The notes below the pieces were generated by a model that was not told the origin of the DNA, did not search any database, and saw only the letters and a list, made by a program, of their open reading frames with translations. The translations under genes and the position numbers were made by a program. From sequence record OL964735.1: 64,000 nucleotides of DNA. One strand, written 5' to 3'. This document shows positions 13,390-57,349 of the stretch, piece by piece. Positions within the stretch are counted from its first letter, which is position 1; each line of letters starts with the position of its first letter. The DNA is from Escherichia phage T4.

Positions 13390-13397
13390 TATTTATA
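13390..13397 (-). promoter_or_regulatory. late promoter TATAAATA for soc
   Basis: Minus-strand TATAAATA 30 nt upstream of the soc ATG, overlapping the segF stop codon. Confidence 0.75.
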
Positions 13398-14632: not shown

Positions 14633-15421
<789 letters not shown>

Positions 15422-15524
15422 TCATTTATTGCAGCAAAAATGAATTATACAATTCTTCATCATATGTATTTGATAGTAATACTAACACGTTTTGCGATAA
15501 ATATTAATTTAAAGGAGGATATAT

Positions 15525-15725
15525 ATGGTACAAAAATTAATGGCACTTGTTAATGCCATAAAAGGTAATAAGAAACGTATAGCTTTTACTATTTCTGCTA
15601 TGGTAGGAATTTTACTCTGGAACTTTATTTTATCACCTGTTGCAATTGCACATGGTGTTAATATTCCAGTAGTTACTCTTGATACATTCGTAGATTTAGC
15701 ATTTGCTTTAGTTGGGTTAATTTAA
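15525..15725 (+). CDS. hypothetical small membrane protein (66 aa), the only plus-strand gene candidate in the window
   Basis: Strong SD AAAGGAGG 15511-15518, 6 nt before ATG 15525; two hydrophobic segments; sits in the 310-nt dam-61 gap; stop TAA 15723-15725 interlocks with the gene 61 stop in the palindrome TTTAAA. Confidence 0.55.
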   Translation: MVQKLMALVNAIKGNKKRIAFTISAMVGILLWNFILSPVAIAHGVNIPVVTLDTFVDLAFALVGLI

Positions 15726-16750
15726 ATCTTAGCATATTTAGATAGCCGCATTTTAGCCATTAACCCCTGGGCAATATTATTTTTCATATATTCCATAATT
15801 TGTTCAGGGGTTGCACCTTCCTTTCTAATCATATCATTAACATCTTTTGATTTCCAGGGAGATTTATCCCAAAACATAACCCTTTCTCCTGCATCAACTA
15901 ATTTAGTCATTCGTTTAATAGTGTCAGGGTGACGAGGTTCATTATCTAAGACCCACACACGTCTATCTTTAAATGGAACAACTTCTAGGTCTAATTGACC
16001 GCCCGTAATAGCTATACCATTTTCAATAAAAAGTGAATCTATAGGTCCTTCTAGAACATATACATCACCATCTTTAACTCGTTCGACTCCATAGATTTTT
16101 GTTGCCTCAGGATAAGCTTTGATGGTGATATATTTTTGAGGAGCATCTTTCTTTAATGCACGTCCTTGAAAAGACTCAGCTTTTCCATTAGCATTATAAA
16201 TTGGAATAACAAGACGAGGCTCAGAAATTTCCTTTTTGTATGTTCCCGGTGCTATGCTATTAACTAATTTAGGCCATTCGGTTGTAAACCAAAGATATTT
16301 CCATTTATCCTTTGGAATACAACGAGCTTTTACGTATTTTATAATTGGATGGTCTTCCGCCAGTTTATCTAATCTAACACATGACGGAAGAGATTTAATT
16401 ATTTTCTTCTCGGGTTGTTTAGGAAGTTCTTTAGGTTTTTCTATTGGACGACTTTTACCTTTTTCTTTTCTTATTTCAAAGATATACTCACGATATAAAT
16501 CGGGTTCAAACTCCTTTAAATATATTCCGATTGGTGCATGATAGTTACAGTTATAACAATGAATATTTCCTTCATTATTATCACCATAATACCATCCACG
16601 GGCTTTATTCTGGTCGGTTTTTGAATCTCCACAAACAGGGCATCTAAACCGTAATTTAAAAGTTGAACTATTATTTACTTGTGTGAATTTAGGTAAATGA
16701 GCTAATGCACGGTATGCAAACTCATTATCAATCCAAGGTATTGATGACAT
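15722..16750 (-). CDS. 61: DNA primase gp61, 342 aa
   Basis: Zinc-finger CPVCGDSK...C..C; length and sequence match recalled T4 gp61. Confidence 0.92.
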   Translation of the reverse strand: MSSIPWIDNEFAYRALAHLPKFTQVNNSSTFKLRFRCPVCGDSKTDQNKARGWYYGDNNEGNIHCYNCNYHAPIGIYLKEFEPDLYREYIFEIRKEKGKSRPIEKPKELPKQPEKKIIKSLPSCVRLDKLAEDHPIIKYVKARCIPKDKWKYLWFTTEWPKLVNSIAPGTYKKEISEPRLVIPIYNANGKAESFQGRALKKDAPQKYITIKAYPEATKIYGVERVKDGDVYVLEGPIDSLFIENGIAITGGQLDLEVVPFKDRRVWVLDNEPRHPDTIKRMTKLVDAGERVMFWDKSPWKSKDVNDMIRKEGATPEQIMEYMKNNIAQGLMAKMRLSKYAKI

Positions 16751-22022: not shown

Positions 22023-22186
22023 GTCATTAATCAACTGCTATTCGATGAACTTCTCTCTTTTCTAATCAATATAACAAAAGAAGTCCCAAAAAGCAAACAG
22101 ACCTAAACCGATAATAAGCAATAAAGGTCCTAACATTTATTCCACCGGTTAAAGATAAATAACTTTCTAATAATAGTTCATAATTT

Positions 22187-23242
22187 TTATAAATCAATAG
22201 CTTTTTTGAACGCATCTTGCCATTCGGCTTTCTTTGCACGGGTTTTATTTAAAATATCATGTTGAATAGAAAGCATCTCTTTACGCAAAACATCACTGTG
22301 TTTTAACTCATTGACTCTATCAATGAGTTCAGCACGATTATTTACATAAAAACGAGCATCATTAATAATTCGATGTTTGGTATCAAATTCTTCGTCAATT
22401 AGCATCACTGCATCAGATGCCATTGTTTCCCAGACGCGTAAGGTAATAAAGTTGTCATTATAATTCTTGTCACCAATAATTAATGCAGCAATAGCTTGAC
22501 TATTCTTTTCAGATACCATGTTCATAGGAATTTTTCCAGTGAACACCGGAGCTTTGGTCCAAGGATATTTAGGATTTTTAAACTGTTTTTCTCGTGCATT
22601 GCCAAAAAACTCAATATTTAAACCGGTGTCAAATAAGAATTCTACCATCTTGGATTCGCGTTGACCGGACCGAAATGAACCGCCATAAATAACATCCAAA
22701 GTTTTCTTGGTAGGCTTAGATAATTGAAAATCGTTCATATGAATTTTATATTGTTCAATAGGAAAATATTCAAATTCAATAACATTATCAACTTTCTTAT
22801 GCGCAGCCTTAGCAATGTCTAAATTTATACCTTGGGAAATCACTTTAATTGGTGATTTAATTAATAGCTCTTCTTCAGTGTACAAATATGCCCATGGTCT
22901 ATTTTTAACATTTGGCCAAGACTGCGAAAACGGCAAACGTATATCTGTAAATAAATAATAAATTTTACTTTTGTATTTTGCCATAAATTTTTGCGCAGAT
23001 AAAATTGCTAAATTAGGTTTACCGCCAAAAAAGTTAATAGAAGAATTAACAACTATCAAACGGTCATAATCATTAACATCTACTTCATCAAAAGATTTAG
23101 TGTAAACACCATTTTTAAGAGAAATAATGTCGACATTAAGACCCATTTCAGAAATAACTTTAAAAAGATAAATAGTTTCAGAAGATGGAACAGTTTTAAA
23201 ATTAATAACATTATTACCCATATTAATTATAGCAATTTTCAT
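22187..23242 (-). CDS. bgt: DNA beta-glucosyltransferase, 351 aa
   Basis: Length, position and N-terminus MKIAIINMGNNVINFKT match T4 beta-gt. Confidence 0.9.
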   Translation of the reverse strand: MKIAIINMGNNVINFKTVPSSETIYLFKVISEMGLNVDIISLKNGVYTKSFDEVDVNDYDRLIVVNSSINFFGGKPNLAILSAQKFMAKYKSKIYYLFTDIRLPFSQSWPNVKNRPWAYLYTEEELLIKSPIKVISQGINLDIAKAAHKKVDNVIEFEYFPIEQYKIHMNDFQLSKPTKKTLDVIYGGSFRSGQRESKMVEFLFDTGLNIEFFGNAREKQFKNPKYPWTKAPVFTGKIPMNMVSEKNSQAIAALIIGDKNYNDNFITLRVWETMASDAVMLIDEEFDTKHRIINDARFYVNNRAELIDRVNELKHSDVLRKEMLSIQHDILNKTRAKKAEWQDAFKKAIDL

Positions 23243-42602: not shown

Positions 42603-43635
42603 CAATGTGTTCAGTAGAGTTCGCTACTTCTCTACCCGTTTATATGAAACAATGTAATTTGGATAATTGTCATCTAAACACAAATCTTTAATACGACTTG
42701 GGTGGAGTTTTAAATCTTTAGCAGCATCCACAAATGATTTATAGATATTGTCATTTATTTTAACATATTCTGGGACGGGATGAATTGTTATTTTTATATC
42801 TATAACATTTGGATGATTACTAACCTGTTCTTCAGAGCATTTAAGAAATTTTGCAGCTGATTTAAAACTTCTAAATTTATTTCCGGATTTTAAAGCTATA
42901 GAAACAGTCTTTTTAGCCGTTCTACTACCAATATTATTTTTAACATGAGCTTCACTTCTACTATTATTTTTATAATGCTCAATCAATTTCTCTCGTATCT
43001 TATCTTTATGTTTTAAAGATAAGATTTTACCTTTATGGGCATTACTAAGTTTTTGCTTATGTTCTTCTGAATCCGGATATTTGTTAAATTTATATCCACC
43101 TATAGATTTATTAAGAATAAATTCGTTATTAAAATATTTCCTAATAAGCATTTCTTCATGTTTAAGGGCCGATTCATAAGAATCAAAAACTTGAAGAATT
43201 ATCCACTTAGCTTTATAATCTTTAAGCTTTTCTTTAACAAGCTTAGATGACGAATTGTATTCTTTCCAATTTGTATCTTTACCATATATAGTTTTGAATT
43301 TTTTAAAACCTATATAAAAAGACTTATCAGGAAATCTTACCATATAGGTAAATGCTACAGAATTGGCAATTTTTAAGCTTTTTCTTAATTTCCATTTCAT
43401 CGTTTCACCTCGTATTCATATTTATACGAGGATAAACAGCTGCATGTCACCATGCAGTTCAGACTATATCTTCAACTCTTAGAGTTGTCTGCCGTTTCGG
43501 GTCGCTTGACCCTACTCCCTTACATTCATCAGGGATAGTCGTTGGGCATTTACAGCTACTGCTGATTTAGCAACGGATTGTCTCAGTGAGAGTTTCCCGT
43601 TTTAGGCAGATTTTACATGAGCTTGACTTACGTTA
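42603..43635 (-). mobile_element. group I self-splicing intron in nrdD (1033 nt) carrying the I-TevII ORF
   Basis: 5' exon ends in U (43636), intron ends in G (42603); the 1033-nt length and restored frame match the known T4 nrdD (sunY) intron. Confidence 0.85.
42624..43400 (-). CDS. I-TevII: intron-encoded GIY-YIG homing endonuclease I-TevII, 258 aa
   Basis: Entirely inside the nrdD intron; GIY-YIG-like motifs (FTYMVRF ... SFYIGF). Confidence 0.85.
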   Translation of the reverse strand: MKWKLRKSLKIANSVAFTYMVRFPDKSFYIGFKKFKTIYGKDTNWKEYNSSSKLVKEKLKDYKAKWIILQVFDSYESALKHEEMLIRKYFNNEFILNKSIGGYKFNKYPDSEEHKQKLSNAHKGKILSLKHKDKIREKLIEHYKNNSRSEAHVKNNIGSRTAKKTVSIALKSGNKFRSFKSAAKFLKCSEEQVSNHPNVIDIKITIHPVPEYVKINDNIYKSFVDAAKDLKLHPSRIKDLCLDDNYPNYIVSYKRVEK

Positions 43636-57307: not shown

Positions 57308-57349
57308 ATATACCCCTTTAGTTAGATAAACCTATTTATAACTTTTGCA

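Follow-up and report, generated by a model that had tools for sequence, protein, structure and literature searches.

Does the short interval between dam and the primase gene 61 of Escherichia phage T4 contain a gene of its own and, if so, when would it be expressed and what might its product do? The question is raised by a 66-residue open reading frame (ORF) on the plus strand of a 64,000-nucleotide (nt) stretch of T4 DNA (sequence record OL964735.1; the whole stretch is called the window in the following). The ORF was pointed out in an earlier note, which had been made from the nucleotide letters alone, and it corresponds to the one named "dam.1, hypothetical protein" (ADJ39749) in the record of phage T4T. 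When all observations are considered together, it is likely that dam.1 is a genuine T4 gene, transcribed late and coding for a small inner-membrane protein from the opposite strand within a block of early genes. Comparison with related phages identifies it as a genuine protein-coding gene under purifying selection.

The ORF (Table 1) has exactly the sequence quoted in the earlier note. The gap between dam and gene 61 does hold the ORF and measures 309 nt (15413-15721) rather than the 310 nt given there; a minus-strand ORF of at least 30 residues was looked for in the gap and not found. The proposed interlocking of the stop codons of dam.1 and gene 61 in TTTAAA is borne out by the coordinates: the TAA of dam.1 occupies 15723-15725, the stop codon of gene 61 is the complement of 15722-15724, and the two ORFs overlap by 4 nt. 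The earlier note also stated that all other genes in the window lie on the minus strand, which is nearly correct, the exception being the small plus-strand gene 55.7. The window is T4 DNA: the 381 bases around the ORF show 100% identity with T4T (HM137666), RB55 and RB59 and 99.7% with the reference T4 sequences, AF158101 and NC_000866. Positions in T4T are converted to those of the window by subtraction of 2199. Within these 381 nt, AF158101 and X01416 differ from the window only at position 15597, where the G of the window is an A in the reference; residue 24 is accordingly alanine in the window, T4T, RB55 and RB59 and threonine in reference T4, where the ORF is likewise intact.

dam.1 matches the protein family phrog_2024 ('unknown function') with E=1.5e-31, residues 2-66 aligning with profile positions 1-65 of 65. 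All ten homologs scanned, from seven genera, match the same family (1e-24 to 1e-31), including the Moon-, Jiaoda-, Gapriver-a and Gapriver-b-type homologs (1e-24 to 1e-28). The homology search in other Tevenvirinae recommended in the earlier note revealed a plus-strand homolog of 61-69 residues, placed tail-to-tail with gene 61, at 14 loci of at least nine genera, with purifying selection on the frame. The syntenic homologs occur in Tequatrovirus (T4, T2), Mosigvirus (RB69), Gaprivervirus (UPEC01, UPEC07), Dhakavirus (QL01, ABTNLsp5), Moonvirus (CF1), Gelderlandvirus (Melville), Jiaodavirus (JD18, Kpn6N), Kanagawavirus (Q7622 and PEi26, in the latter unannotated) and an unclassified Klebsiella phage. 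The 4-nt stop overlap with gene 61 is retained at nine of the 14 loci. The left-hand neighbor varies: it is dam in T4, an extra 181-residue gene in T2, and in other phages gene 56 or further small genes. It is therefore the 3' end of gene 61, and not dam, that the ORF accompanies. Ratios of nonsynonymous to synonymous substitutions (dN/dS, Nei-Gojobori) are 0.07-0.20 for Tequatrovirus and Mosigvirus pairs, 0.30 for Jiaodavirus and 0.64 for Gaprivervirus. Between T4 and RB69 the synonymous sites are saturated, 53% of the residues are kept, and the differences are distributed over the three codon positions as 32/12/41.

These data bear directly on the simplest alternative, according to which the gap consists of the gene 61 terminator and the dam promoter region and the frame is open by accident. 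Such a view could appeal to the lack of a gene at this place in the reference T4 annotation, to the potential early promoter of dam in X01416, P(E) 17.40, and to a minus-strand terminator-like hairpin at 15559-15540. The -35 element of P(E) 17.40 (15502-15507) overlaps the late-promoter-type box of the opposite strand described below, and the site remained below the threshold of a consensus promoter scan. The hairpin, an inverted repeat ATGGCA...TGCCAT followed by a T-run, lies approximately 165 nt past the gene 61 stop; one terminator-like site was found in the scanned region, where 1.0 is expected by chance, so its presence is not significant. An ATG-initiated ORF of at least 66 residues arises in about 1% of composition-matched randomizations of this 313-nt stretch with 28% GC, a chance that applies to a single genome. 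The frame, however, is kept across nine genera, where the flanking DNA does not align and dam is often missing, and it displays low dN/dS ratios and the third-position bias of the dam.1 reading frame. An accidental ORF is excluded by the comparative data and its probability is negligible.

dam.1 evolves faster than the genes around it. T4 and RB69 share 53% identity in dam.1, 74% in gp61 and 71% in gp56, and at greater distances the values are approximately 25% for dam.1 and 63% for the neighbors. Homologs were found by tblastn in 692 phage records, and an IMG/VR scan added only 7 further loci. A profile search against 1.8 billion representative proteins yielded 7 hits at E<=1e-3, of which the plausible ones all belong to the same family; a hit to a protein of 1822 residues was discounted for lack of an aligned stretch. 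As judged from these searches, the family is confined to this phage group, in which it comprises three sequence types. When the family hidden Markov model (HMM) was run against all stop-to-stop segments in 158 kb of T4, no paralog was found and only dam.1 itself was returned. Gaprivervirus UPEC01 contains tandem paralogs (L008 1501-1907), a T4-like copy followed after 8 nt by a Dhakavirus-like copy that is without a box of its own, is co-transcribed and has only GGTGG as a Shine-Dalgarno (SD) sequence. In UPEC07 (L009 1699-1816) the first copy is kept and the second is a decayed remnant.

Several observations on the relatives stand by themselves. In the Edwardsiella phage PEi26 (AP014715), an unannotated family member of 61 residues, MTKKPLFRLNNHKKK..., is encoded on the plus strand (L022 1220-1405) and overlaps the end of gene 61 by 4 nt. 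The extra gene of phage T2 (MH751506), T2_31, lies on the minus strand between dam and the dam.1 homolog (L005 1247-1792) and is without a counterpart in T4; in Pfam it matches the DpnII restriction endonuclease family below threshold (E=0.0096, 15.7 bits relative to a cut-off of 23). Since GATC is the site of action of both DpnII and Dam, the location beside dam is intriguing, but so weak a match cannot be relied upon. At or beside the locus, some product names are evidently wrong, such as 'DNA packaging ATPase' in UPEC01 and VAC36, which in UPEC01 is attached to the second copy of the dam.1 family, and 'head outer capsid protein / putative head morphogenesis protein' in the T2 record AP018813, and likewise the holin labels of OE5505 and KP1079 treated below.

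The suggestion of the earlier note that the gene might be unannotated or overlooked holds for the reference T4 annotation; AF158101, NC_000866.4 and MT984581 contain no feature at the ORF. It does not hold for T4T, RB69, T2 and hundreds of relatives. The gene is not new, as the T4T annotation of 2010 already contains it as hypothetical and the RB69 annotation is older still. The T4T genome was reported with 280 ORFs as compared with 278 for the compiled T4 sequence (Petrov et al. 2010, PMC2993671). The RB69 counterpart is RB69ORF029w (NP_861719). The annotated T2 homolog carries the note "similar to RB69ORF029w" and cites the RB32 copy as RB32030w, and the label RB32ORF030w was found on Shigella phage vB_SsoM_113. 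A literature search covering dam.1, ORF029w, its locus tags and accessions, T4 ribosome profiling and the mapping of T4 transcription start sites retrieved nothing on the gene. In the CRISPRi-ART fitness screen of T4, guides were designed for the annotated coding sequences of NC_000866, of which 273 were screened (PMC11879866); dam.1 was never targeted because the guides followed these coding sequences. Shotgun proteomics would also tend to miss the protein, as trypsin leaves one practical peptide, LMALVNAIK, together with one hydrophobic peptide of 48 residues. The reference records of phage T4 thus omit a conserved, probably highly expressed gene, and it escapes any study whose gene list derives from NC_000866.

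When is dam.1 expressed? T4 late promoters are defined by TATAAATA at positions -13 to -6 (Geiduschek and Kassavetis, PMC2988020). In T4 a box of this type, GATAAATA, precedes the dam.1 ATG by 21 nt and predicts a transcription start at approximately 15509-15511. Its deviation from the consensus is single and concerns the least constrained position, -13. A list of 50 T4 late promoters contains 32 perfect ones, nine with A at -13, the commonest natural variant, and nine with other deviations, nearly all single (PMC2988020). The distance to the start codon is within the range of 14-35 nt observed in front of the T4 late genes 53, 4, 9, 15, 18, 19, 20, 22, 24, inh, 26, 51 and t; as a control, every NATAAATA in 158 kb of T4T was located. 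Every genus has a late-promoter-type box at a distance of 12-22 nt before the start codon. The box matches TATAAATA perfectly in Q7622 (at -28) and in phi1_146055 (at -27) and reads AATAAATA in RB69 and Dhakavirus (at -29) and CATAAATA in Gaprivervirus and Jiaodavirus. Three Tequatrovirus contigs (L011-L013), with upstream DNA that otherwise bears no relation to that of T4, also have AATAAATA. Since the box is kept although the surrounding sequence cannot be aligned between genera, it is under selection.

The composition of the window adds to this picture. Late-promoter-like octamers are strongly depleted on both of its strands, with 3 copies of TATAAATA found where 11.2±3.2 are expected and 10 copies of VATAAATA where 32±6 are expected. 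In a region from which the motif has been purged, the copy retained directly in front of an SD sequence is more meaningful. If the box drives expression, conversion of GATAAATA to GACAAATA should abolish it and conversion to TATAAATA should raise it.

The SD sequence, AAAGGAGG, was claimed by the earlier note to be the strongest in the window, and the calculation agrees. Its duplex with the 3' end of 16S rRNA has an energy of -11.6 kcal/mol and ranks first among 160 annotated T4 starts, for each of which the 20 nt upstream of the start annotated in T4T were evaluated (120 starts within the window plus those of 39 late genes beyond it). Most homologs retain AGGAGG or AAGGAG, and Q7622 has GGAGG. 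In T4, SD sequences of late genes are stronger than those of early genes (mean -5.9 versus -3.9 kcal/mol, p=1.5e-4). Early and middle transcripts of T4 are all counter-clockwise and late transcripts run in either direction (PMC2988020), so that dam.1, read clockwise, is expected to be late. The conserved box, its spacing and the orientation of the gene all support the late promoter proposed in the earlier note, and we infer from them that dam.1 is probably expressed late in infection.

Could a real gene at this place be expressed early or at the middle stage, from a plus-strand sigma-70 or MotA-type promoter? Weak sigma-70-like matches exist inside dam (for example at 15222-15250, with 9 of 12 positions), and X01416 lists a potential plus-strand promoter P(E) 16.82. 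The number of such matches equals the expectation from shuffled sequences, and the scan revealed no above-chance sigma-70 promoter upstream of dam.1 on the plus strand. The matches lie at least 275 nt upstream, and since the gene located there varies from phage to phage, they lack conservation. All early and middle transcripts known from T4 run counter-clockwise (PMC2988020), and the conserved element that adjoins the SD sequence is the late box. Early or middle expression is therefore very improbable.

Table 1. Features of the dam.1 locus and of the plus-strand gene 55.7, with positions in the window
Feature	Position	Strand	Basis or remark
dam.1 coding sequence	15525-15725	+	ATG start, 66 residues plus stop, family phrog_2024
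Late-promoter-type box GATAAATA	15496-15503	+	TATAAATA consensus with G at -13
Shine-Dalgarno sequence AAAGGAGG	15511-15518	+	6 nt (ATATAT) before the ATG
Residues 1-18, short amphipathic helix, then basic cluster (K4, K13, K16, K17, R18)	15525-15578	+	predicted cytoplasmic
Residues 19-42, transmembrane helix with invariant W32, N33, P38	15579-15650	+	predicted from hydropathy and AF2 model
Residues 43-66, loop HGVNIPVVT (invariant G44, P48), then acidic-hydrophobic helix 52-63	15651-15722	+	predicted periplasmic or at the membrane interface
TTTAAA, interlocked stops of dam.1 (+) and primase gene 61 (-)	15721-15726	both	sequence
'Potential early promoter P(E) 17.40' for dam	15479-15507	-	X01416 depositor annotation, labelled 'potential'
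Terminator-like hairpin plus T-run downstream of gene 61	15540-15559	-	inside dam.1 codons 6-12
Gene 55.7, 28 residues	39458-39544	+	T4T annotation; only other plus-strand micro-ORF annotated inside the early block

Other boxes in the window were noted in passing. The three perfect copies of TATAAATA all belong to the minus strand: one (13390-13397) is placed 29 nt ahead of the soc start codon, another (43419-43426) 18 nt ahead of that of I-TevII, and the third (57333-57340) precedes no annotated start. Four plus-strand NATAAATA boxes are clustered in about 1 kb, 22154-23174 (at 22154, 22684, 22950 and 23167). They are antisense to the beta-glucosyltransferase gene or lie in the segA/b-gt gap and may be late antisense promoters or chance occurrences; no plus-strand ORF follows the first of them (22154) within the stretch checked.

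An intrinsic terminator after dam.1 on the plus strand of T4 was looked for and not found; a late transcript would therefore run antisense into gene 61. It is conceivable that this RNA is the main product and shuts off the primase gene late in infection, the peptide being secondary. The interlocked stops make read-through unavoidable in most genera, and transcription of both strands, at different times, is known from some T4 sites (PMC2988020). The amino acid constraint and the very strong SD sequence, however, show selection on the protein itself, and read-through is not universally kept, as Jiaodavirus JD18 has a GC-rich GGGGC-UUCG-GCCCC hairpin and Gaprivervirus UPEC07 a 118-nt spacer between the ORF and gene 61. 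As the main role of the locus, antisense control is improbable. The two roles are compatible, and an antisense effect on gene 61 is possible in addition to a role of the protein, whose constraint antisense transcription does not explain.

What kind of protein does dam.1 encode? The earlier note described a small membrane protein, which is supported by hydropathy, by the AlphaFold2 (AF2) model and by the prediction of a single transmembrane segment (residues 21-41) in RB69ORF029w (Nolan et al. 2006). The Kyte-Doolittle plot peaks at residues 23-41 (mean 2.0 over 19 residues). In the AF2 model (mean predicted local distance difference test score, pLDDT, 79.5), residues 2-12, 16-42 and 52-63 are helical and residues 43-51 form a loop. 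The topology prediction suggested as a check places one transmembrane helix (approximately residues 19-42) with the N-terminus inside. The N-terminal flank (residues 1-22) contains five Lys/Arg and has a net charge of +5, whereas the C-terminal flank contains none and has a net charge of -2; from this asymmetry and the positive-inside rule the N-in topology is predicted. Of the two membrane helices claimed in the earlier note, one is thus firm. The second hydropathic stretch, residues 48-66, scores 1.86 in T4 and 0.6-1.2 in the Moon-, Jiaoda- and Dhaka-type homologs, and the C-terminal helix has 12 residues, two of which are aspartates (D53, D57). A second transmembrane helix, supported neither by the distant homologs nor by the helix length in the AF2 model, is doubtful.

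Across 11 divergent homologs, W32, N33, P38, G44, P48 and G64 are invariant, and residue 53 is always acidic. All invariant residues belong either to the outer half of the helix or to the tail, which makes an interaction at the periplasmic face probable. Such sequence comparisons suggest that dam.1 probably binds a partner membrane protein there.

The proposed course of events would be as follows. dam.1 would be transcribed only late, by RNA polymerase with gp55, gp33 and gp45. Transcription would start about 6 nt after GATAAATA, yielding a leader of some 16 nt whose 5' end nearly coincides with the SD sequence, and would continue antisense into gene 61. The product would be abundantly translated and inserted into the inner membrane as a bitopic protein with its basic N-terminus in the cytoplasm, one transmembrane helix (approximately residues 19-42) and a tail of 24 residues outside or at the outer leaflet. 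There it would bind a partner membrane protein through the invariant residues. As a speculation, the likeliest function would be to modulate a late envelope event, for example lysis timing via the axis of holin T and antiholin RI, or to protect membrane integrity.

A number of points weigh against this interpretation. The T4 box has G at -13. Among the boxes in 158 kb of T4T, 18 of the 28 that begin with T lie 8-45 nt upstream of a start on the same strand, as do 4 of the 13 that begin with A, 2 of the 8 that begin with G and none of the 5 that begin with C; of the two G-boxes, the one that does not belong to dam.1 is shadowed by a perfect box. The G-variant of T4 is therefore not decisive by itself, and the comparative evidence carries the argument. 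The paper on the structure of gp55 gives no information on base recognition at -13. The box of Moonvirus and Gelderlandvirus, ATTAAATA, has two deviations, and RB69ORF029w is not preceded by a late promoter in the list of Nolan et al. (2006). In the literature, neither transcripts nor ribosome footprints or peptides of dam.1 were found. As to the protein, the topology is predicted by the positive-inside rule together with an AF2 model whose confidence is moderate, and the hydropathy of the C-terminal segment in T4, RB69 and Gaprivervirus (1.9-2.5) would suffice for a second transmembrane helix. Similarity to any characterized protein was not found in Pfam, NCBIfam, an exhaustive HMM search or a fold search; the functional proposal is a guess.

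The searches for a function can be specified further. T4 dam.1 had no hit in Pfam and NCBIfam, even at E up to 10, and three divergent homologs had none in NCBIfam. A fold search with the AF2 model against BFVD and the PDB returned only the own family or noise, and a word-index protein search only close relatives. A superinfection-exclusion protein of the Imm or Sp type was considered and rejected, since the family HMM finds only dam.1 in T4 and the predicted timing is late and not early.

A small, probably late membrane protein with a transmembrane helix at about residues 19-42 might be a holin or pinholin that forms a lethal membrane lesion and thereby releases the endolysin. Two relatives bear corresponding names: UniProt calls the OE5505 homolog 'Holin', and the KP1079 record has 'putative holin'. 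These labels appear to be automatic, however, and no holin family is matched in Pfam or NCBIfam. The protein has no charged hydrophilic C-terminal domain; its last 25 residues, which terminate in the hydrophobic LAFALVGLI, include no Lys/Arg and carry a net charge of -2. dam.1 does not lie beside an endolysin or other lysis gene: its neighbors are dam and the primase gene, rI is far off in the window, and t and rIII lie outside it. T4 possesses the holin T, whose gene has a TATAAATA box of its own, and lysis fails in t-null T4; the presence of another sufficient holin is therefore unlikely. Lysis by T4 is already explained by T, E, RI, RIII and PseT.3/PseT.2. We regard a holin function of dam.1 as quite improbable.

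In place of a holin, dam.1 could be an abundant late inner-membrane factor that, together with a periplasmic partner (holin T, the antiholin RI, the i-spanin or a host envelope protein), sets the timing or inhibition of lysis or counters a membrane-acting defence of the host. In this specific form the idea is tentative and rather unlikely to be correct, and the assignment of a lysis-timing or envelope role to dam.1 is a guess. If it were true, dam.1 would be a missing part of the envelope programme of T4 that T4 genetics and genome-wide screens have missed for want of an entry in the reference annotation. Entry of dam.1 into the reference annotation and its knockout could uncover a late membrane function common to most enterobacterial T4-like phages.

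How does dam.1 compare with known genes and proteins? Gene 55.7 resembles it as a plus-strand micro-ORF within the early block; it encodes only 28 residues, and a plus-strand NATAAATA box looked for in its vicinity was not found. The T4 late genes that are transcribed from TATAAATA promoters, such as t, soc, 51, 26 and uvsY.-2, are similar to dam.1 in the type of box, the gap of 14-35 nt, the AT-rich DNA downstream of the box and the strong GGAG-type SD sequence, and the holin gene t, like dam.1, is placed tail-to-tail against the stop codon of an early gene. dam.1 differs from them by the G at -13 instead of T or A and by its solitary position inside the early region. With the single-transmembrane holins of the T7 gp17.5 type, the pinholin S68 of phage 21 and T4 RI, dam.1 shares a similar size, the inner-membrane location and the probable late timing; it has neither sequence nor fold similarity to them, has no basic C-terminal tail and is not part of a lysis cassette. 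By analogy with these proteins, dam.1 may work like a small membrane regulator of lysis.

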